64,000 bases of DNA from contig CBDCAW010000008.1 of the NCBI GenBank assembly GCA_965214025.1, forward strand, positions 4,434 to 68,433, written 5' to 3'. A program made the translations under genes and the position numbers. Origin of the DNA: Granulosicoccaceae bacterium (lineage in GTDB: Bacteria > Pseudomonadota > Gammaproteobacteria > Granulosicoccales > Granulosicoccaceae). The stretch's first letter is position 1; every line of letters begins with the position of its first letter. Positions 1 through 40,554 of this stretch are shown piece by piece. Under the pieces are notes generated by a model, which worked only from the letters and a program-made list of their open reading frames with translations, had not been told where the DNA came from and searched no databases.

Positions 1-347
1 ATGTTTTCGTGCCGATGACCGACTATCACGAACGAGTCGGTCAGCACGCACTGCGCGGCACGGGAAGGCTCGAGAATCGCACCTGATTTCAACAATAGAT
101 GAGCGCGATCGACCTCGTCCTGGCCGGCGCGAGTGGTCGGTGTCTCATCGAAACCGAGCAGGCTGGCCGCCGGTGCATCGAGATCCATGAACAGGTCGCC
201 CCCGTTGAGCATGACGGCTACTACAGGTTCTGCGGATTGCGCCGCACTGGCAGGCTGTTGCCCGCCGGCGCTTGCCCATATCGCGCCCACCGCATAGGAG
301 GCGGAAAGGATCGCTGCCGCCATGATCGCCAGAAAAACTGTTTGCAT
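1..347 (-). CDS. hypothetical exported/membrane-anchored protein, 3' end beyond the window start
   Basis: Own translation from ATG at 347: MQTVFLAIMAAAILSASYAVGAIWASAGG..., with a hydrophobic N-terminus and no stop before base 1. Absent from the ORF track, probably because it has no stop in the window. Confidence 0.5.
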   Translation of the reverse strand, partial: MQTVFLAIMAAAILSASYAVGAIWASAGGQQPASAAQSAEPVVAVMLNGGDLFMDLDAPAASLLGFDETPTTRAGQDEVDRAHLLLKSGAILEPSRAAQCVLTDSFVIVGHRHEN

Positions 348-412
348 GTTGAATCCGTCCCTGTTCGCGCATCAGATCATGATCTGAAGTGGTTGTTCCG
401 GCACAGATTGGC

Positions 413-967
413 CTACTCACTGCGCTGGTCGAGCACCGCTCGCATCTCATCCGAACCTGCCGGTGGTGTCGGCGCACGGTAACAGGCCTCGAGCATTGCA
501 AACAAGACCTCGCCGGATAGACCCCCATGCCAGCGTCGCCACTGGCTGAAACACAAGGTGAGTATTTCCAGGCGCTTGGCACCGGTGAGCAGAAAACGAA
601 AATGGCCCTGCCCGCCCCCTGACATATCGAGCGCCAGCCCGGCGGGGCCATGATTCAGCGTAAGGAACTTGTTCTTCTGCGGACCATGATTTTTCAGCTC
701 GCACCGCGACTGCCAGGCACATAGTGTTGCCATGACGTCACTCATCTCACGCGTGCTCACCTGCAGGGTCAGGACCTGTCCGGCATCGAAGTTGTATACA
801 TGCCCTGCCCGTGCCGCCGGGGGATACTCGCGGCCGGCCTGGAAACTGACGGTGTGCATCACACCGACGGTCTTGCCACTGGTTCTGTCAATCGTGCCTC
901 GAGTCTCGCTCAGAACGGCCTTCAACGCCGACTTGCGACCGTAGACCCAGACTGCTGATGCTGCCAT
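413..967 (-). CDS. hypothetical protein resembling, from memory, conserved plasmid/ICE hypotheticals (VYG-K-AL ... CE-KNHGP motifs)
   Basis: 184-aa ORF divergent from the tus-like gene. Motifs VYGRKSAL and CELKNHGPQKNK. The family link is recalled, not searched. Confidence 0.6.
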   Translation of the reverse strand: MAASAVWVYGRKSALKAVLSETRGTIDRTSGKTVGVMHTVSFQAGREYPPAARAGHVYNFDAGQVLTLQVSTREMSDVMATLCAWQSRCELKNHGPQKNKFLTLNHGPAGLALDMSGGGQGHFRFLLTGAKRLEILTLCFSQWRRWHGGLSGEVLFAMLEACYRAPTPPAGSDEMRAVLDQRSE

Positions 968-1038
968 GCCGTGATTTTCAGTTTCGGACGTGTCCAGAGC
1001 TTAACCCTGCACCCATGCTATCGGCGTTGATTCGTATT

Positions 1039-1297
1039 TTTATACCATCGTGGCAAGCTTATCTATCTTTAAACCAGGCTCGTCCTGACCACTCGGCGGC
1101 GTCGGGGGAAATGGGGGGAAAAAAGGGAAAAAAACAAGCAACATGCGGGTGAAGAAACTTTGGTTCCTTCAAGATCTCCCGCGTATTACAGTAACTGTAA
1201 GTATATTTATGCAGCGATGGTATAAACAAGCTAGGGCGAGCTTATCGCAGCCTTTTGCCTGCATCGATGCGTACTATCGCAGCCACGATGGTATAAA
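1039..1297. repeat. 16-bp perfect inverted repeat (GCCACGATGGTATAAA) plus a third 12-bp copy (CGATGGTATAAA)
   Basis: tttataccatcgtggc at 1039-1054 is the reverse complement of gccacgatggtataaa at 1282-1297. cgatggtataaa also occurs at 1215-1226. Confidence 0.95.
1186..1200. promoter_or_regulatory. palindromic operator-like site TTACAGT-A-ACTGTAA
   Basis: Perfect 7-bp arms with a 1-nt spacer in the AT-rich divergent intergenic region. The regulator is unknown. Confidence 0.5.
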
Positions 1298-1302
1298 GAA
1301 GT

Positions 1303-2190
1303 ATGGATACTCTAGACCGCATGGGCGTGCTCGAACGGTTCGCAGCTCTTCGTGAGGCTGTGGCCACTTTGAATAACTGGTTGCCGGCACACACACAGGC
1401 AGGCGCCGTTTACCCACTACCGGTGCTCAGCGAAGCTGAAGTGCCGCCGTTGATCAGCCCGGGGCTGGAGAGCGATGCCGAAGCCGCACGTCTCGGCGGC
1501 ATCGCCTTTGCCCAGTTCGAACGGCTCGACGAGCAACATCCCTCAACCGTTGCGCGTGTGCCGGGGTGGCTGCAACTCGATACCGACCCTGCTGCCTTCG
1601 TAGACCCCATCAACGAGCTGAAGCAGCACATCCAGGACACGCTGCGCGCAGCGTTCAGCTCCACGTCAAAGCGGGCCAAGGCGTGCAGAACCCTTTTTCC
1701 ACGGGTAGCGATGAACCAGCTCTATCGGCAGATCCATGTCGTCGATGCCAGCGTGGGCCGCATCAGCTTCATCTGGCAGCCGACCACCGTCGCCCGACGC
1801 AAGCTCAGCGTCGATGAGGCGCTGGCCTTACTGGCTCAGGCCGAACAGGATCCGTTGCTGATGGCCCGGCCGGGTGCCGCCGACGCGGTGGCCATCGCGC
1901 GCAGGCAAGTCGGAACACTCACCGAATCGTCACACTACCAACTCATCCTGAGCACACCGGTAGCGCCCCATCCACGGGTGGCCTTGTTCAATGTCAATGA
2001 ATCCAGGGCACGAAAGACCCATCATGCCAACCTGCCCCTGCTGCTGGCACCGCGAGACAAACCGCTGCGGGTACGTGCTCTACCGGATTTCGATGCCGGC
2101 AGGCGTAAGAAACCTCGCGGCCAACCCAAGCGTGTCCTGGACCCGCTCTGCGAACTGGTTCACCTGTATGGTTTCCACAAGGCACCGTAA
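1303..2190 (+). CDS. tus: Tus-like DNA replication terminus site-binding protein
   Basis: Colinear motif matches to E. coli Tus: VARVPGWL~AVRLPGVL, INELKQH~INKLKTT, PRVAMNQLYRQI~PGLITLNAYRTL, ISFIWQ~LRFGWA, PVAPHP~PVKVQP, HANLPLL~HACPTPLI, LPDFDA~LLNYDA, VHLY~LHLY. Length (295 aa) is similar. Confidence 0.8.
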   Translation: MDTLDRMGVLERFAALREAVATLNNWLPAHTQAGAVYPLPVLSEAEVPPLISPGLESDAEAARLGGIAFAQFERLDEQHPSTVARVPGWLQLDTDPAAFVDPINELKQHIQDTLRAAFSSTSKRAKACRTLFPRVAMNQLYRQIHVVDASVGRISFIWQPTTVARRKLSVDEALALLAQAEQDPLLMARPGAADAVAIARRQVGTLTESSHYQLILSTPVAPHPRVALFNVNESRARKTHHANLPLLLAPRDKPLRVRALPDFDAGRRKKPRGQPKRVLDPLCELVHLYGFHKAP

Positions 2191-2217
2191 TCTTGTCAAC
2201 CGCGGAGAACGACGATC

Positions 2218-2442
2218 GTGAGCGCGAAGGTCAATCGCAGAGGTTCACCACTGGCCAGCACCGGCGACATCATGCTGGTACAGGAATCCATGAAGGTGGC
2301 AGGCCTGTATCATGGCGAAATCGATGGCCAACCCGGCATACAGACCCTGAGCGCCGTGCGCACCTACAAGAAGCGCCACGGCATGCCGGCGAACAACACG
2401 CTGGACGATGACTTCATCGCGCATCTTCGGTATGAAACCTGA
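2218..2442 (+). CDS. small peptidoglycan-binding-domain protein (PGBD only)
   Basis: VQESMKVAGLYHGEIDGQPGIQTLSAVRTYKKRHGM fits the PG_binding_1 pattern Q..L...G.Y.G.IDG..G..T..A...FQ...GL. Confidence 0.75.
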   Translation: MSAKVNRRGSPLASTGDIMLVQESMKVAGLYHGEIDGQPGIQTLSAVRTYKKRHGMPANNTLDDDFIAHLRYET

Positions 2443-2635
2443 GCCGAGCTCTGACGGTGCGTTCGGCCAAACGTACCGGACAAGCGCAATCGCACACCGG
2501 CATTCGCCTTACCGGTGGAAGCTCAGTGCCGTATCGCCCAGACTGCATAGACCAGACTGCATAGAGCGGATCTCCCGCAACCATCGGATTGCGGTGCTGC
2601 ACGATCGGCTCGCCGAATCCGGCGGTCGATCAGTC

Positions 2636-2746
2636 ATGGGTCGGCAACAACATTGGCGGCGTACTCTACCATCGGCCATCCTGACCATGCTCATCGGACG
2701 ACTGGCGCTGTTCACCTCATCGCCCCTGTTCTTACGTGCCCTCTGA
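2636..2746 (+). pseudogene. possible remnant of a TrkH-type K+ transporter C-terminus
   Basis: ...LTMLIGRLALFT... resembles the TrkH terminal MLxGRLExFT motif. The match is short. A 14-bp tandem duplication (ccagactgcataga x2, 2538-2565) lies just upstream. Confidence 0.3.
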
Positions 2747-2838
2747 CCTGACCGGCGCGCCTGCTGATCGTGCCGATGTTCCAGGTGAGGATCTCCTTCG
2801 TATAGGGGCTGCGAACAAGCTGAACGGATGGGTTGTCG

Positions 2839-3234
2839 ATGACTACCGATAGTGCTGATGCGACCCGGAGCGCTCCCCGGACCGGGAGTGCGCCACTGAC
2901 GGTCTACTACGACGGTGCCTGCCCGATCTGCAGCCGTGAGATAGCGACCTACCGGCGCGCCGAGGGTGCCAACCGGCTAGACTGGATCGATGTTTCGACC
3001 AGCGAATCGGCAGCGCTCGGCGATGACCTGACAGCCGAGCAGGCGATGGCACGCATGCATGTGCGCGAAGCGGATGGGACGCTGGTGGATGGAGCAGCCG
3101 CGTTTGCCGCAATCTGGCAGCATCTGCCACGCACGCGCTGGCTGGGCAAGCTGACGAGCTCACGGCCGGTACTGTGGGTGCTCGAGCCCGCCTATCGATT
3201 GTTCCTGAAAATACGGCCCCTGTGGCGGCGGTAG
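2839..3234 (+). CDS. DCC1-like thiol-disulfide oxidoreductase (DUF393)
   Basis: VYYDGACPICSREI (DxxCxxC) plus MHV...G....GA.AF..IW..LP pattern. Confidence 0.9.
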   Translation: MTTDSADATRSAPRTGSAPLTVYYDGACPICSREIATYRRAEGANRLDWIDVSTSESAALGDDLTAEQAMARMHVREADGTLVDGAAAFAAIWQHLPRTRWLGKLTSSRPVLWVLEPAYRLFLKIRPLWRR

Positions 3235-3314
3235 CCTTTCCAGTATCGATGGCGCATTCGCCGCGCTCCTCAACCTCGCTACACCCGAATCCAGCAACTA
3301 CGGACACCTTACCC

Positions 3315-3701
3315 ATGTCAGAAGAGACCCTACGCAAGAACCCCATGATGGCCCACCTGCTCGACTCGTTGGATGAGGGCAAGGACATCGGCCACTATGG
3401 CCGGCTGGTCTTCACGATCGTCGCACGGCATTTTCTCGACGAGGACGAGCTCGTCACCTGGATGACGAAAGACAAGGATGTGGATGAAACCAAGGCTCGC
3501 GGCTTGCTGCATCAGGTGGCAGAAGCCGATTACAGCCCGCCAAAGGCGGATACCATCCGCGGCTACGAGAAGAAGCAGGAATTCCCCATCCTGGCCAATC
3601 CCGACGACCCGGACGCGGGCAACGTCTACCAGGATCTGGAATTCCCCGAGTCGGTGTACAACAGCATCTCGGAATATCACGAGGAAAAGTCGGACACCTG
3701 A
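3315..3701 (+). CDS. conserved hypothetical protein resembling the primase large-subunit C-terminal domain (PriL-CTD/PriX-like), lacking the Fe-S cysteines
   Basis: 128 aa from ATG 3315. NPMMAHLLDSLDEGKDIGHYGRLVF ... DVDETKARGLLHQVAEADYSPPKADTI aligns by eye with PriL PPC..LL....G..L.H.GR ... DFDE.KTRY.V.H....YSPPSC.T. Confidence 0.65.
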   Translation: MSEETLRKNPMMAHLLDSLDEGKDIGHYGRLVFTIVARHFLDEDELVTWMTKDKDVDETKARGLLHQVAEADYSPPKADTIRGYEKKQEFPILANPDDPDAGNVYQDLEFPESVYNSISEYHEEKSDT

Positions 3702-3800
3702 GCGCCCCCTTTCACCGTCCGGTGACGGATTCGGCGTCGCTATCGAGTAAGAGAACGTCGCAAGGAGGAATCGCTCACGGGGCAGGCCCATCGCCAGCCT

Positions 3801-4079
3801 CTATCGGTCACGTGTGATTCGACCCTCGCGGGCGGCATCGACCACCTCGCGGTGCCGGCGTTCTTCGGCGCGAGCGCCGCGATTATGCCGGGCCACCGTG
3901 ATGAACCCGAAGACCAGCACGAAGGGGTACACCAGGAACCAGCCCACACCGAACAGCCCCACGCTCAAACCCACGGCGATCAGCGTGAACACCACACCGG
4001 CGGCCATGCTGGAGTAGAACAGCCCGAGCGGGCCGAACAGCACGTTGAGGATGAACTGCAGAATCTGAGATTTCTTCAT
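3801..4079 (-). CDS. small membrane protein (2-3 TM) with a charged C-terminal tail
   Basis: 92 aa, LNVLFGPLGLFY motif, hydrophobic core, Arg/Glu-rich tail. Confidence 0.7.
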   Translation of the reverse strand: MKKSQILQFILNVLFGPLGLFYSSMAAGVVFTLIAVGLSVGLFGVGWFLVYPFVLVFGFITVARHNRGARAEERRHREVVDAAREGRITRDR

Positions 4080-4199
4080 GCGACTAGCAGCTCCCCGGCG
4101 TCAGCGGTCGATGGTTCAGGGTATTAAGATGGGACGCCGGATCGCGCAAGTCAATTCGGCGCGCGCCGGAACATGGCTCGTCTCACCTGGAGATACCCG

Positions 4200-5264
4200 A
4201 TGAATACACCGAGTGGTCTGCCCGGGCTGCCCCCGATGATGAATTCGCTGGTGAAGGCGCAGCCGACGGAAGGCCTTTGGATGCAGCGCAGCCCGGTGCC
4301 GGCGATAGGTCCGGACGATGTTTTGATCCGGGTGAACAAGACCGGCATCTGCGGCACCGACATCCACATCTGGAACTGGGATGCCTGGGCGCGCGATACG
4401 GTACCGGTACCGATGATCACCGGTCACGAGTTCGCCGGTGTGATCGTCGAGCTCGGCAGCGGTGTCACCGACCTGGCCATCGGCCAGCGCTGCTCGGGCG
4501 AAGGCCATCTGATCGGCCGCAACAGCCGCCAGTCGCGTGCCGGCAAGTTTCATCTGGACCCGGGTACACGCGGCATCGGTGTCAACGAGCCCGGTGCCTT
4601 CGCCGAGTACCTGCGCCTGCCCGCGTTCAATGTGGTGCTGCTGCCGGACGAGATTTCCGACGATATCGGTGCGATCCTCGACCCGCTCGGCAACGCGGTG
4701 CACACCGCCCTGTCGTTCGACCTGATCGGCGAGGATGTGCTGATCACCGGTGCTGGCCCGATCGGCATCATGGCGGCTGCCGTAGCGCGTCATGCCGGTG
4801 CCCGCAACGTGGTGATCACCGACGTCAACGCCGACCGTCTGGCGCTGGCGCAGACGGTGACCGATGTGGTGCCGGTGAACGTGGCAACGGAAGACCTGCG
4901 CGAGGTGATCTCACGCCTGAGGATGAAGCAGGGCTTCGATGTCGGCCTGGAGATGTCGGGTAGCCAGGTGGCGCTCGACCAGATGGTCGAGGCATTGGTC
5001 ATGGGCGGGCGGATCGCTCTGTTGGGCATTCCGCCAGGCAAGTCACCGGTGGACTGGTCTCGCATCGTCTTCAAGGCGATTACCCTGAAAGGCGTCTACG
5101 GGCGCGAGATATTCGAGACCTGGTACAAGATGATCGCCATGCTGCAGAACGGCCTGGACGTGAGCCGCGTGATCACCCACCATTTTCCGGTGCAGGAGTT
5201 TCGCGAGGGGTTCGGAATAATGAAAGGCGGATCCAGTGGCAAGGTGGTGCTGGCCTGGCGTTGA
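4200..5264 (+). CDS. tdh: L-threonine 3-dehydrogenase
   Basis: [44 protein letters not shown]-like [19 protein letters not shown]. Start placed at ATG 4200 behind GGAG. Confidence 0.95.
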
Positions 5265-35277: not shown

Positions 35278-36663
35278 ATGAATCTCGACTCACAAATACA
35301 CGACGTGGCCGTCATCGGTGCCGGGGCGGTCGGCTGCGCCGTGGCTCACGCACTCGCCGTCCGTGGGCTTGACGTCGTCGTGCTCGAACGCGGTGCAGAG
35401 CCGCTGTCCGGCGCCAGCAAGGCCAACAGCGCCATCCTGCATACCGGTTTCGATGCACCACCCGGCACGCTCGAGGCGCGTCTGGTCGCACGCGGCCACG
35501 CGCTGTACCTCCAACGAGCCGAACGCCACGGGCTGTCGGTGCTGAGAACCGGTGCGCTCGTCGTCGCCTGGAACGAAGACCAGGCCGAGCGGCTGCCGGC
35601 ACTGCTCGAACAGGCGCACACGAATGGCGTGCACGACGCGCTGCTGCTCGATGCGCGGGAGGTCGCCACTCGCGAGCCAAGCCTGGCACCGGGTCAGCAC
35701 GGAGCGTTGTACGTGCCGCGCGAGCACGTGATCGATCCGTGGAGTCCATTCCACCACTATGCGAGTGAAGCACGACGACGCGGTGCGAGGTTCGTCTTCG
35801 ATGCCGCACTCGAGTCCGGCACGTTCGACGGGCACACCTGGACGCTGGGAGTCGAGGGTGGCCAGACGGTACGCGCCGGGCGCACGGTCAACTGCGCGGG
35901 GCTTCACGGCGATACGGTCGAACGGGCATGCCTCGGTGCCAGCCACTTCGAAGTTCGCCCGCGCGCCGGTCAGTTCGTCGTCTTCGACAAGGCGGCCGCG
36001 CGCCATGTCGGCGCGATTCTGCTGCCGGTACCGAACAAGATCACCAAGGGTGTCGTATTGACGCGTACTGCGTTCGGCAACGTACTCGTCGGCCCCACCG
36101 CAGAGGAGCAGACCGACCGGGAGCGTGCACGCACCACTCGCAAGGGGCTCCGGGCGCTCGTCGCGGAGGCCGAGCGCCTCGTGCCGGCACTCGCCGGTAT
36201 TCCGGTCACGGCCACCTACGCGGGGCTGCGCCCGGGTTCCGACGACAAGGGTTACCGGATGCGCCACGAGCCCGATCTCGGCTGGCTCACCGTGGGAGGC
36301 ATCCGCTCGACCGGCATGACATCCTCGCTCGGGCTCGCCGAGCACGTCGTCCAGTTGCTGCTCGGCGAACTGGCCGAAACACCTGTCGACGACACCCCGC
36401 TCAGCCACCCGATCGTGCTGTCCGAGCACGAGCACCGCGACTGGCGAACGCCGGGCTACGGTGAGATCGTGTGCCACTGCGAGATGGTGACGCGGCGCGA
36501 GATCGAGGCGGCGCTGGACGGGCCGTTGCCGGCGCGCAGCCTCGCAGGCGTACGGCGCCGCACGCGCTGTGGCCTCGGCCGTTGTCAGGGCTTCAACTGC
36601 GCGGGGCGCCTGGCCGAACTGACCGACGGTCGGCTTGTACACCCGGTGCCGGGCGCGACGTGA
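35278..36663 (+). CDS. FAD-dependent oxidoreductase (LhgO/GlpA-like) with a C-terminal BFD-like [2Fe-2S] domain
   Basis: IGAGAVG, SKANSAILHTG, YAGLRP, GIRSTGMTSS, VCHCE.V...RRRTR.GLGRCQGFNC. Confidence 0.9.
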   Translation: MNLDSQIHDVAVIGAGAVGCAVAHALAVRGLDVVVLERGAEPLSGASKANSAILHTGFDAPPGTLEARLVARGHALYLQRAERHGLSVLRTGALVVAWNEDQAERLPALLEQAHTNGVHDALLLDAREVATREPSLAPGQHGALYVPREHVIDPWSPFHHYASEARRRGARFVFDAALESGTFDGHTWTLGVEGGQTVRAGRTVNCAGLHGDTVERACLGASHFEVRPRAGQFVVFDKAAARHVGAILLPVPNKITKGVVLTRTAFGNVLVGPTAEEQTDRERARTTRKGLRALVAEAERLVPALAGIPVTATYAGLRPGSDDKGYRMRHEPDLGWLTVGGIRSTGMTSSLGLAEHVVQLLLGELAETPVDDTPLSHPIVLSEHEHRDWRTPGYGEIVCHCEMVTRREIEAALDGPLPARSLAGVRRRTRCGLGRCQGFNCAGRLAELTDGRLVHPVPGAT

Positions 36664-36726
36664 AATACCGCTGCGCGTTCTCGGACAAGGCGCCGGTATT
36701 GCCGTGTTACCAACGCGGACGTCGAC

Positions 36727-38022
36727 ATGACGGGTGATTCGCCGATCGATATCGTCGTGGTGGGGGCCGGCCCTGCCGGCCTCGCGGCGGCCACGGCGGC
36801 GCGGCGCGGCGGAGCCGGTCGGGTCGTACTGCTGGAACGGCAGCCGGAGCCCGGTGGCGTGCCCCGCCAGTGCGGACATTCGCCGTACGGCATGCGGGAG
36901 TTCCACCGCGTGATGAGTGGCCGCACCTACGCCCGGCGGCTCGCCGCGGATGCGTACGCGGCCGGCGTCGAGCTGTTGCTCGGCCGCTCGGTCGTCACGC
37001 TCGACAGCTCCCGCGACCAGGATTCCCCCAACAGGGGCCCCACGCTCCATACCCTGTCGTCCGAGGGGGCCACGACGATCACAGCGCGCGCGGTGATCGT
37101 CGCGACCGGCGTGCGCGAGACCACGCGCGCCGCAGCGTTGTTGCCGGGCCAGCGCCCTGGCGGGATCATGAATACCGGTGCGTTGCAGGATCTCGTGTAC
37201 CTGCGCGGTCGCGTGCCGTTCCGGCACCCGATCGTGATCGGCAGCGAGCTTGTGACGATGTCGGCGCTGATCACGTGTGCGACGCACGGCATCCGGCCGG
37301 TGGCGGTCATCGAATCCGCGGTACAGCCGATCTTGCGCGCCCCGTTCGCCTGGTTGCCGCGCGCTCTCCGTCTTCCCTGGCACTTCGGTGCCGAAGTGAT
37401 CGACGTCGAGGGCGAGGATCGGGTACGGAGCGTGCAGGTGCGATTCGCCGACGGGACCGAGCATACGTTCGACTGCGACGGCCTGTTGCTTACGGGTCAC
37501 TTCGTGCCCGAGGCGTCACTGCTGCGCGCTGCCGGCGCCAGGATGGATTTGCATACACAGGGTCCTTGCATCGACGCCTGGGGGCGCACCTCACTGCCCG
37601 GCGTGTACGCGGTCGGCAACGTGTTGCGCGGCGTCGAGACTGCGGGCTGGTCGTGGGCCGAGGGCGCGCGTGTGGCTCAGGCGGTCATCGACGATCTGCA
37701 AGCACGGCCCGACGATGTCGAATCTGACCGGTGCCGCGGCCGGAACGGCGGCATCGAACTGGTCGCCGGTCCCGGTATCGCGCGCCTGGTTCCGCAGCGA
37801 CTGGCACTCGTCCCGACGGTGAATTCCGCCCTCGCCTTCCCCGACGTGCAGCTGCGCCTGCTGGAGCGCGCCTCCGGCCGTGTCGTCGCGCGCCAGGACG
37901 ACAAGGTCATCCTGACGCGACGCGTACACTCGGGCCCGGAGCGACGCGTGCTCGTGCCGGTACGCGATGTGCTGCGCAACGTCCGCACAGGTACGGTGGA
38001 GTTCAGCGTGGAGGCAGCTTGA
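36727..38022 (+). CDS. NAD(P)/FAD-dependent pyridine nucleotide-disulfide oxidoreductase
   Basis: VGAGPAG, GGVPRQCGH, ATGVRE, GIMNTGALQ, YAVGNVL. Confidence 0.9.
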   Translation: MTGDSPIDIVVVGAGPAGLAAATAARRGGAGRVVLLERQPEPGGVPRQCGHSPYGMREFHRVMSGRTYARRLAADAYAAGVELLLGRSVVTLDSSRDQDSPNRGPTLHTLSSEGATTITARAVIVATGVRETTRAAALLPGQRPGGIMNTGALQDLVYLRGRVPFRHPIVIGSELVTMSALITCATHGIRPVAVIESAVQPILRAPFAWLPRALRLPWHFGAEVIDVEGEDRVRSVQVRFADGTEHTFDCDGLLLTGHFVPEASLLRAAGARMDLHTQGPCIDAWGRTSLPGVYAVGNVLRGVETAGWSWAEGARVAQAVIDDLQARPDDVESDRCRGRNGGIELVAGPGIARLVPQRLALVPTVNSALAFPDVQLRLLERASGRVVARQDDKVILTRRVHSGPERRVLVPVRDVLRNVRTGTVEFSVEAA

Positions 38023-39507
38023 GCGACACGGACGCGCATCCGGGCCCAAGCGGCGGGGGGTCGCTACTTCGGGGCGATCGATCAGGGCACCACGTCCACG
38101 CGGGCCATGCGGTTCGGGCCTGACAGGCAGCTGCGCACCGTGTTGCAGCTGAGTCACGCGATGTACCGACCCGCACCGGACCGTGTCGAGATGGATGCCG
38201 CCGAGCTTGCGCGAAACGTCGCCGCCTGCGCCGATGCGCTCGGCGGCGTCGAAGCTGTCGGTCTCGCAAACCAGGGCGAGAGCTGTCTGGCGTGGGATGC
38301 GCGCACCGGCGAGCCGCTCTCCCCGGTGGTGTCCTGGCAGGACGGACGCACGGCGGATACGCTCAGGCAAATGGCTGCCGACGGACTGGCCACTGAAGTG
38401 CTGGCCCGCTCGGGGTTACCGCTCGATCCCTACTTCTCGGCCGCGAAGCTTGGCTGGCTACTGGCCGAGCTACCGGCTGTCGCCGCCGCCCACGCCGGCG
38501 GGCGGCTGCGGCTGGGTACCAGCGATGCGTTCCTGCTCGACACGCTCGCCGGACGCTTCGCGACCGACGTGGCCACAGCTTCGCGCACCGGTCTGACAAG
38601 CCTTGCGACCGGCAATTGGGACCCCGAGCTGTGCGCGCTGTTCGGCGTGCCGATCGAGACTCTGCCACCGATCCTGCCGACCTTGGGTGACTTCGGCACG
38701 CTCGCAGGCCGTCCCGTACGTGCGGCGATCGTCGACCAGCAGGCGGCGCTGTACGGTCACGGCTGCCGGCTGCCGGGGGAGCTCAAGCTCACGCTCGGCA
38801 CCGGCGGCTTCGCACTTGCTCCGTGCGAGACGGCCCAGCGCTTGCGCGCCGCGGCCGTGGGACTCGTACCGACCGTCGCATGGGACCTGGGCGACGGCCC
38901 GGTACACGCGCTCGACGCGGCGGTGCCGGACGTGGCCACCGCGCTCGACTGGAGCGTGCACTGCGGGTTCGCGGCGAACGTCGGTGCGTGCGATCCCGAG
39001 GCGCCACTGATCGCCACGACCGGGCTGGTCGCACTACCGCTCTTCACGGGCCTCGGGTGCCCGGACTGGGAACGTGGAGCGCCGCCGTTGATACTTGGCT
39101 ACAACCCCGACACCTCGGGGGCAGACCTCGCCCGCGCAACGCTTGAGGGGGTGGCCTGGCTATGCGCCCGCGCGCTTGCCGCGATCGCCTCTGTCGTCAA
39201 GCCGAGCGGACCGGTGCGGGTCGATGGCGGCGTGTCGCGCGATGGCGCATTCCTGCAGGCGCTCAGCGATCTGTCCGGACGCGAGCTGGCACCCGCACCC
39301 GAGGCCGAGCGCACCGGCCTGGGCGCGGCCCTGCTCGCCGCGCGCGCGTGCGGCGCGCCCGAGCATGATATCGAGACCACCGCGCCAATGCACGTCCGTC
39401 CCCGTCCGGTACCGGACGCCGCGCACGAAGCGCTTGCTCGTGCCCTTACCCTTGCGCGCCATGCGGCGCAGACCCCACCCGACGTCCCGGAGACCGCACA
39501 TGGCTGA
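38019..39507 (+). pseudogene. FGGY/glycerol-kinase-like carbohydrate kinase, frameshifted near the 5' end (G6 tract)
   Basis: AIDQGTTSTR lies in frame with ATG 38107 but upstream of it. The likely start TTG 38019 (GGAGG RBS, TTGA overlap) is one base out of frame across G6 at 38055-38060. Also GLANQGE, SWQD.R, DPYFSA.K, VDQQAALYGH, TLGTG. Confidence 0.8.
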
Positions 39508-39561
39508 GTCGTGTCTCTTGTACGTTGATCCTGATATTCGACGCCCGATGAGGACCGAACC

Positions 39562-40554
39562 ATGAAAGGCTTCGCCCCGCACTTCGCGGACCTGCCCGAC
39601 TACATTCTCCAGATGACCAAGGAGGTATGGGAGGATCGCGGCATATCCACGCTGCACCACTACTACGCCAAGGAGATGATACTGCGCTCCACGAGCGGGC
39701 TGATTCGCGGCAGCGACGGGGTCATCGCCGACACGCTGGCGACGCTCTCGGAGGCACCCGATCGACGCATCCTCGGCGAGGACGTGATCTGGTCCGGCGA
39801 TGAGTATTCGGGCTTCATGTCTTCGCATCGCGCGATGACGCTCGGCACGCATACCGGCCACGGAGTCCACGGTCCGGCCACCAACCGGCGCTTCGCGTAC
39901 CGTGCGATCGCCGACTGCGTCTGCCGCGATGACGTCATTCACGAGGAATGGCTGGTACGCGACAGTTCCGCGATCGCAATTCAGCTCGGTCTCGACCCCG
40001 TCGAAGAGGCACGTGCGCAGATCGTGCGCCAGGGCGGCCCCGAGAGCGCTATCCGCCCGCTCGACGCCGCCAACGACGTCGCCGAAGAAGTCTATACCGG
40101 TCGTGGCAACGACAACGAATGGGGCGAGCGGCTCGAGGATATTCTCGTGCGGCTCATGGCAGCCGACGTCACGGTCATCAGGAAGACCTACGACCGCGCC
40201 GCCGCGATCGCCCACCCCGGCACGCGTGACGGCTGGTCCTTCGACTTCGCAGAGACCGAGTGGATGCGGCTACGATCGGCGTTCCCATCGGCCCGCTTCA
40301 AGGTCGATCACCGTATCGGTCGCAGCGATCCAGGCCAACCGAACCGCGCGGCGGTGCGCTGGACCTTGACCGGCAGCCATGACGGTCTCGGCGCGTTCGG
40401 GCCCCCGTCCGGTGCACCGGTGCACATCATGGGCATCACCCACGTGGAGTTCGGTCCGTACGGCGAATACGGCTGGGGTGTGCGCCGCGAGTGGACGGTG
40501 TTCGACGAGGTGGCGGTGTGGAAGCAGATCCTGTTGCACGGCGGGCGGGTGTAG
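39562..40554 (+). CDS. ester cyclase / tandem SnoaL-like (NTF2-fold) protein
   Basis: DLPDYIL..T..VWE.R, EDVIWSG, G.H.GHG, EEWLVRD, RW.L.G.H.G...FG, REWTVFDE. Confidence 0.8.
   Translation: MKGFAPHFADLPDYILQMTKEVWEDRGISTLHHYYAKEMILRSTSGLIRGSDGVIADTLATLSEAPDRRILGEDVIWSGDEYSGFMSSHRAMTLGTHTGHGVHGPATNRRFAYRAIADCVCRDDVIHEEWLVRDSSAIAIQLGLDPVEEARAQIVRQGGPESAIRPLDAANDVAEEVYTGRGNDNEWGERLEDILVRLMAADVTVIRKTYDRAAAIAHPGTRDGWSFDFAETEWMRLRSAFPSARFKVDHRIGRSDPGQPNRAAVRWTLTGSHDGLGAFGPPSGAPVHIMGITHVEFGPYGEYGWGVRREWTVFDEVAVWKQILLHGGRV

Follow-up and report, generated by a model that had tools for sequence, protein, structure and literature searches.

Does a Tus-like protein encoded outside the Enterobacterales recognize the short repeats that lie in front of its own gene, and could the protein and its repeats together act on replication forks? 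The question is raised by a 64,000-nucleotide (nt) stretch of DNA, here called the window, from a Granulosicoccaceae bacterium (GCA_965214025.1, contig CBDCAW010000008.1, positions 4,434-68,433, forward strand). Tus-Ter is the textbook polar fork barrier and has been characterized essentially only in Enterobacterales. Tus genes outside this order have been noted on plasmids and in a few other gamma-proteobacteria (PMC6549158, PMC7858055), and surveys describe Tus as confined to gamma-proteobacteria, where it forms three resident clades with scattered mobile copies (PMC6549158). The window and its relatives add a divergent branch of Tus that is accompanied by an inverted pair of Ter-like sites of its own and in many cases by a Whirly-like protein.

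The product of the gene at 1303-2190 is, as judged from family profiles and a predicted structure, a Tus-family protein with a Tus fold. The protein of 295 amino acids (aa) matches the Pfam family Ter (PF05472) with E=1.3e-14 and 54.4 bits (cut-off 22), and the alignment is full length, with residues 12-289 covering profile positions 5-296 of 296. A phmmer search of PDB sequences with the single protein returned no match, and a profile made from the protein and eight metagenomic homologues matched E. coli Tus (1ECR) from end to end with E=5e-22. An AlphaFold2 (AF2) model of the protein has a predicted local distance difference test score (pLDDT) of 80.8, and Foldseek searches with this model gave significant matches to Tus structures only, with 1ecr_A at E=7e-19 and a template modeling (TM) score of 0.63. 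An earlier note on this DNA, made by a model from the letters alone, had described a full-length Tus-like open reading frame (ORF) and had named a Pfam profile search and structure prediction as checks; both checks return the Tus family, and the description stands. The divergence from known Tus proteins is considerable. Identity to E. coli Tus is 25% by BLASTP and 19% in the family alignment, the score against the NCBIfam Tus equivalog (NF002810) is 48.4 bits versus a cut-off of 323 and thus below that of a canonical Tus, and the closest relatives found are 35-38% identical. A scan of GTDB genomes with the single protein recovered no relative; an alignment-based scan did find relatives.

The intergenic region upstream of the gene contains the 12-mer CGATGGTATAAA at 1039-1050 on the minus strand and at 1215-1226 and 1286-1297 on the plus strand. 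These three copies were re-found exactly where the earlier note had placed them, and they are the sole matches in the 64 kb even when one mismatch is allowed (0.01 expected by chance; none of 100 shuffles gave three). The scan of this genome covers the 64 kb available. The repeat is longer than the 12-mer first noted, since the outer copies (sites A and C in the table) form a perfect inverted pair of 16 nt, while the middle copy (site B) shares 15 of 17 positions with the repeat, an 88% inverted match to site A. As had been claimed, 5 nt separate the end of site C from the ATG; the TGGTAT of this site begins 14 nt before the ATG, and TGGTATAAA within the site resembles an extended -10 element. 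One minus-strand site and two plus-strand sites give the window the opposed orientation that characterizes a fork trap. Eight metagenomic variants in the intergenic region all fall outside the three sites, a distribution that is not significant (P ~0.3).

Table. Features of the window around the Tus-like gene (positions are those of the window)
Feature	Coordinates	Strand	Remarks
Tus-family (replication terminus site-binding) protein gene, highly diverged	1303..2190	+	ATG start, 295 aa
Site C, candidate proximal same-strand Ter-like site GCCACGATGGTATAAA	1282..1297	+	exact 12-mer; inverted repeat with site A
Site B, candidate second same-strand Ter-like site TGCAGCGATGGTATAAA	1210..1226	+	exact 12-mer
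Site A, candidate Ter-like site GCCACGATGGTATAAA, distal to tus, on the side of the Whirly-like gene	1039..1054	-	exact 12-mer; 16-nt inverted repeat with site C
Purine-only tract (one T), 31 nt, between the opposed sites: GGGGGAAATGGGGGGAAAAAAGGGAAAAAAA	1104..1134	+ (tus-coding strand)	read directly
Divergent gene for a 184-aa protein with a predicted Whirly fold	413..967	-	fold and family profile

The strongest evidence that the motif belongs to the protein comes from its relatives. Loci encoding Tus-like relatives (numbered with the prefix L) were drawn from metagenome assemblies, GTDB genomes and plasmids; the 71 loci form 40 clusters at 90% protein identity, and 38 of these have usable upstream DNA. 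In the 700 nt that precede the tus-like genes, the density of TGGTAT is 2.57 per kb, versus 0.21 per kb elsewhere in the same loci. A same-strand site with the TGGTAT core is found no more than 100 nt from the start codon in 32 of the 38 assessable clusters, an opposite-strand site is found further upstream in 32 of 38, and both orientations are present in 31. In every one of these 31 clusters, all opposite-strand copies are distal to all same-strand copies, and the arrangement holds across genomes ranging from 35% to 72% guanine plus cytosine (GC). Site A of the window is the counterpart of the distal opposite-strand site, and extra copies on one side only, like site B, are also found in L110, L157 and L158. 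The spacers between the sites are unrelated across clades and the core motif is retained.

The bases that flank the core vary with the protein clade. The variant [C/T]GATGGTATAA is found in the window and in L001, L110, L157 and L158; ATGGTATAAC is found in the closest relatives, L121 and L124, and is listed for L110 too; TAGGGATGGTATTA is found in L008 and L090-L092; TAGGGCTGGTATTACG is found in L141, L153 and L154; and TAGGGGTGGTATT[A/G] (TAGGGGTGGTATTA) is the form carried by IncP-7 Pseudomonas plasmids such as pCAR1. The two arms of a single locus usually carry identical extended sequence. Shared arms combined with clade-wise variation of the flanks make the pattern expected of a co-evolving cognate protein-site pair, and the linkage is fixed in orientation as well. 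The motif is thus very probably the cognate site of the Tus-like protein, as far as sequence comparison can tell. The earlier note had proposed a diverged Tus-Ter pair with new sequence specificity and had suggested that the upstream regions of homologues be compared; that comparison shows the inverted layout recurring in 31-32 of 38 assessable clusters and lends the proposal good support.

Plasmids provide complete replicons in which the sites can be counted. The plasmid pCAR1 (complete, 199 kb) contains GGGGTGGTATTA exactly twice, with no further copy when one mismatch is allowed. The two copies form an inverted pair at 66231-66242 (minus strand) and 66335-66346 (plus strand), directly upstream of a gene annotated as "DNA replication terminus site-binding protein" and about 3-4 kb from repA. 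The distal site comes after the terminator of a gene that reads in the same direction, and there is no divergent promoter at that position. In pPH2PALO502 (49.6 kb, L160, CP075790.1), both 15-mers are intact at 3871 and 8688 with a 4.8-kb insertion between them. Because the 15-mers are intact despite the insertion, each site appears to have been kept on its own, as expected of Ter-like sites. The insertion carries a recombinase and a RelE/ParE toxin-antitoxin pair. Papers on IncP-7-type plasmids merely list the tus gene, and one plasmid-typing scheme has Tus as a replicon marker. Neither the sites nor the pairing is described in the literature found by searches that combined Tus with IncP-7, pCAR1 or Whirly, or that used "Tus-like" or the motif strings; the motif strings matched unrelated primers only.

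The relation of the motif to canonical Ter can be judged against E. coli TerB (AATAAGTATGTTGTAACTAAAGT in MG1655), a site on the coding strand of tus with its end 10 nt short of the ATG. Measured against this TerB, the earlier note was correct in giving ATGGTATAAA 7 of 10 positions in common with the Ter core ATGTTGTAAC, and such a match by itself is weak evidence. In the relatives L121, L124 and L110, ATGGTATAAC matches ATGTTGTAAC at 8 of 10 positions, on the coding strand and in the same orientation as TerB; a match of this quality has a chance of about 1%, an estimate made after allowing for offsets and strands. The same-strand sites of the Pseudomonas loci lie at -21 to -26, compared with -25 for TerB. 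The full canonical core (A)TGTTGTAAC(TA) is present neither in the window sites (7/10) nor in those of the closest relatives (8/10), and the invariant core is TGGTAT. The site is plausibly homologous to Ter, with an uncertain register.

The explanation favored here, held with moderate confidence, is a self-contained Tus/Ter-like cassette that would repress its own gene and would probably block forks from both directions. From the comparisons above we infer binding, repression, arrest and polarity as follows. The Tus-like protein would bind the asymmetric TGGTAT-core sites A (minus strand), B and C (plus strand), most likely as a monomer. Occupancy of site C, where a Tus-sized footprint would cover approximately 1283-1303, would occlude the -10-like TATAAA and the predicted start at 1303 and would thereby repress the tus-like gene; site A may likewise repress the divergent Whirly-like gene. 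Because the sites face each other, forks arriving from either side would meet a compact barrier of bound protein. Ter-like polarity would place the non-permissive face at the 5' end of the motif strand; a fork moving rightward would then run through A and be halted at B or C, one moving leftward would run through C and B and be halted at A, and arrest would thus occur at the second site met, inside an interval of about 170-250 bp. Were the polarity reversed, the first site met would halt the fork, and termination would be confined to the locus either way. On IncP-7 plasmids, replication would in effect become unidirectional with such a barrier about 3-4 kb from the origin. The parts of this mechanism differ in strength. 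Autoregulation of the gene by its product is likely, and for the arrest of replication forks the balance tips only slightly in favor.

Fork traps of similar layout are known from other replicons. On R6K and R1/R100, two opposed Ter sites close together on the plasmid confine termination, and on R1 the Ter pair near the origin results in effectively unidirectional replication. The site pair of pCAR1 resembles that of R1 in its distance from repA. These plasmids use the host Tus and canonical Ter sites, whereas an element of the type found in the window encodes its own diverged Tus beside the sites. In Bacillus subtilis, rtp lies immediately beside the opposed IRI/IRII (TerI/TerII) pair and is autoregulated through this pair. 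The placement of the gene beside an opposed pair is shared with the window, but RTP is an unrelated winged-helix dimer and the resemblance is one of analogy, not homology.

Within the Tus family, the window shares with E. coli a protein of the same family and predicted fold and an asymmetric coding-strand site that lies directly upstream of the gene and overlaps the promoter region. Autoregulation of E. coli Tus through TerB has been described (PMC8707476). The window differs in its core, TGGTAT[A/T]A, and in having the opposed site within about 250 bp and not hundreds of kb away. The Ter1/Ter2 system of Edwardsiella tarda (PMC8707476) is likewise a minimal trap with two opposed sites, one of them just upstream of tus. 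Its sites, however, are canonical with C(6), lie far apart and flank dif on the chromosome, whereas those of the window are a non-canonical pair in a single intergenic region. Toft et al. proposed that a narrow two-site fork trap is ancestral in Enterobacterales (Toft et al. 2021, PMC8707476). On the Pseudoalteromonas chromid, Tus is encoded near ori2, a plasmid-type origin (PMC7858055, PMC6549158), and E. coli-like Ter sites could not be found by those authors (PMC7858055). The proximity to a plasmid-type origin is a point of likeness; the Pseudoalteromonas protein belongs to a different clade, is described as E. coli-like and had no cognate site proposed for it.

Several observations weigh against an autorepressing fork trap. 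The cytosine-pocket residues of E. coli Tus (Ile79, Phe140 and His144) and Arg198 are not conserved across the family. In the window protein the equivalents of Ile79, Phe140, His144 and Gly149 are a gap, Ala, Arg and Arg, and position 198 is Leu, a comparison that depends on an alignment at 19-25% identity. The roles of these four residues in the E. coli cytosine pocket were reportedly described by Mulcair et al. in 2006. Arg139, Arg157, His253 and Ala254 are largely conserved in the family alignment. Position 6 of the site, read with the alignment of motif to Ter used in the earlier note, is C, T or G (top strand) in the clade of the window, and there is no conserved GC(6) pair. Since neither the lock residues nor GC(6) are conserved, a mousetrap-type lock is not expected, and polar, locked arrest as in E. 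coli seems unlikely. The match to Ter is modest, and for the Pseudomonas variant an alignment shifted by 3 nt scores equally. Some loci lack one or both sites (L004, L007 and L120), L125 has opposite-strand copies only and L148 has a same-strand copy only. The GC skew offers equivocal evidence for a terminus next to the origin: on the plus strand of pCAR1, G exceeds C almost all the way round, a near-monotonic skew that fits unidirectional replication, and the skew of pPH2PALO502 is V-shaped. In addition, TGGTATAAA/C makes a good extended -10 element at a leaderless distance, and promoter function may explain part of the conservation. The whole case is, moreover, a computational one.

Two of these observations would be at home in a rival account, in which the Tus-like protein binds the sites solely to repress transcription of its own gene and the Whirly-like gene and has no role at forks. 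The lock pocket and Arg198 are not conserved, the skew of pPH2PALO502 looks bidirectional, and both divergent genes in the clade of the window have a -10-like sequence or start codon that coincides in part with a site. The plasmids speak against this account and make it unlikely. In the 199 kb of pCAR1, full sites are confined to the promoter of the tus-like gene itself and a Whirly-like gene is lacking, which would leave a repressor of itself alone without an evident function. In Pseudomonas plasmids the distal site follows a terminator and faces no divergent gene, both sites are intact even when they are 4.8 kb apart, and the gene lies about 3 kb from repA on IncP-7 plasmids. The sole characterized member of the family is also a fork barrier.

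The position of the motif relative to the start codon bears on a different account, in which it is a strong extended -10 promoter (TGnTATAAT-like) that is duplicated for divergent genes and is not bound by the Tus-like protein. The sequences TGGTATAAA, TGGTATAAC and TGGTATTAT do fit TGnTATAAT, and a -10-like hexamer ends 5-7 nt before the ATG, with no Shine-Dalgarno sequence, in the window and in L110, L121, L124, L126, L128, L157 and L158. The same -14 to -16 offset of TGGTAT without a Shine-Dalgarno sequence is seen in these seven loci and in L131, which suggests that the tus-like mRNA is leaderless in the clade of the window. Elsewhere in the family the offset to the ATG is -7 (where the motif includes the ATG, as it overlaps the start codon in L104, L114, L134 and L150), -21 to -26 (where a Shine-Dalgarno sequence comes right after the motif, within a few nt, in most Pseudomonas loci), -40 to -46, -86 to -99, -265 or -362, and the same-strand sites of L008 and L091 are 265-362 nt upstream. 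The distal copy of pCAR1 faces a terminator and not a gene, and outside the tus-like locus the promoters of the 64-kb window and of pCAR1 do not contain the motif. The varying offset, the distal copy of pCAR1 and the lack of the motif at other promoters argue against a promoter without a bound protein. So do the bases 5' of TG (GA, GGGA, GGGG or GGGC), which are conserved by clade and are not needed by a -10 element, and a generic sigma-70 and terminator scan found nothing in the intergenic region and no sigma-70 match at the sites. This account is consequently very improbable, and the better reading, by analogy with TerB at E. coli tus, is that the motif would be an operator overlapping a promoter, start site or ribosome-binding site. 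Slimmer still are the chances that the repeats have another nature altogether: that they are bound by the Whirly-like protein or some other factor, mark the two ends of a miniature transposable element, or serve in recombination or as an origin. Perfect inverted repeats of 16-18 nt that are 90-270 bp apart do superficially resemble terminal inverted repeats, a Whirly-like gene is adjacent in several clades, and Tus serves as a replicon marker in the typing scheme mentioned above. Yet the site pair persists in a plasmid without a Whirly-like gene, its spacers are unrelated between clades, and it occurs once per replicon and is not dispersed as a mobile element would be. Neither a dif-like site in the window nor an Rfam RNA in window positions 1-5000 was found. 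As for an origin, the minimal replicon of pCAR1 is repA-oriV and is not known to include tus.

The favored cassette often has a third component. Position 413, at which the earlier note began its finding, is the end of a separate divergent ORF (413-967) that the note did not describe. Its 184-aa product has no match in Pfam, NCBIfam, PHROG or PADLOC, and a phage or defense reading was dropped because the PHROG and PADLOC searches were without match. The Pfam Whirly family (PF08536) does not match the protein at E<=1; one close homologue reaches E=0.088, and the scores of more remote members of the family, 20-24 bits, straddle the cut-off of 23. With a 16-sequence profile, the best PDB matches are plant Whirly p24 (1L3A, E=0.008) and WHY3 (E=0.036). 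The AF2 model (pLDDT 84.9) finds Whirly structures in all of its top 16 Foldseek matches, from 1l3a_A at E=7.7e-7 to 2.4e-4 with TM scores of about 0.5-0.6, followed by MRP1/2 and PUR-alpha; the Whirly fold consists of two beta-beta-beta-beta-alpha repeats. By profile and predicted structure, the product is a member of a distinct, uncharacterized Whirly-like family. It resembles the plant Whirly proteins (PBF-2/p24, WHY1-3) in predicted fold and weakly in sequence, and differs from them in being bacterial, in having no significant Pfam match and in belonging to a distinct family. An exhaustive profile search found 846 cluster representatives (50% identity) at E<=1e-10; in many of these the domain forms the C-terminal part of a longer protein, and those sampled score around the Pfam Whirly threshold. 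A GTDB scan with the Whirly-like profile recovered the L110 genome alone.

Homologues of this gene are divergent and adjacent to the tus-like gene in L110, L121, L124, L157, L158 and L159 and lie within a few kb of it in L008, L091, L141, L153, L154 and L135. In these loci the distal sites are just upstream of the Whirly-like gene. An initial view that the divergent neighbor is not conserved, drawn from L001 and L007 only, was overturned by tblastn and profile searches of more loci. Because pCAR1 has no copy of the Whirly-like gene anywhere in its sequence, the Tus-like protein is the only constant partner of the sites; neighbors other than the Whirly-like gene differ between loci.

Whirly/PC4-type folds bind single-stranded nucleic acids. 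A part played by the Whirly-like partner in handling the single-stranded DNA of an arrested fork is speculative; the purine tract at 1104-1134 would be one possible target. Spacers with a window of 20/20 purines are found in L008, L091, L109 and L110, and 19/20 in pCAR1. A broader proposal is a portable three-part cassette, composed of the Tus-like protein, the inverted Ter-like pair and often the Whirly-like binder, that would arrest forks both ways without the mousetrap lock; it is less likely than not, and in it the Whirly-like partner would protect single-stranded purine-rich DNA at the arrested fork. If true, the three-part cassette would supply the first function for a free-standing bacterial Whirly protein and an arrest mechanism unlike that of E. 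coli Tus-Ter.

In many Pseudomonas loci a pyrimidine tract precedes the purine tract. A hairpin of a pyrimidine arm and a purine arm, suggested by single-sequence folds of Pseudomonas spacers, was rejected when RNAalifold gave no support for a conserved structure. Several metagenome assemblies break or lose coverage at about 1070-1270 of the window (runs X3 and X4).

The comparison gives a conserved candidate site for the whole diverged Tus clade, including the IncP-7 catabolic and resistance plasmids of Pseudomonas. It makes newly testable whether a non-enterobacterial Tus arrests forks, whether the C(6) lock is needed and whether an origin-adjacent pair sets the replication mode of a plasmid. 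Orthogonal pairs of Tus and site would be useful as programmable fork or protein-DNA locks, and the linkage to a Whirly fold suggests a previously unnoticed partner in fork handling.

Some relatives depart from the common layout in other ways. The arrangement is partly degenerate in the P0002-P0005 clade, and L001 has two opposite-strand sites and no same-strand site. In L004 a single GATGGTATAG lies upstream of the preceding Pyr_redox_2 gene, with which the tus-like gene seems to be co-transcribed. Frameshifts interrupt the tus-like genes of L092 (872-915, in a poly-A run of a metagenome-assembled genome of a Lucinoma symbiont) and L159 (136-1031, in a long-read contig); each is either a pseudogene or an artifact of assembly. 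Arrays of GATAGATAGCTATC-type palindromic repeats, which resemble centromere or iteron sequences, are found upstream of the site pair in L093 (about 2770-2870), L094 (about 2700-2820) and L104 (about 2775-2800), directly after a gene whose product ends in ...KKHYNLK.

The genes around the cassette in the window serve ordinary metabolism and transport, none of these neighbors in the 64 kb is a gene for replication or mobility, and the GC skew of the window is uninformative. The best matches of one window protein are divided among uncultured Alphaproteobacteria, Rhodobacterales and Granulosicoccus. An ORF of 175 aa on the plus strand (3174-3701) belongs to no Pfam family and weakly matches the NCBIfam model for the archaeal/eukaryotic primase subunit PriL (E=6e-5, 22.8 bits versus a cut-off of 339), perhaps by chance. 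The segment at 36001-40000, which spans oxidoreductase and FGGY kinase genes, has a GC fraction of 0.70 compared with about 0.60-0.62 in the remainder of the window and may be of foreign origin.

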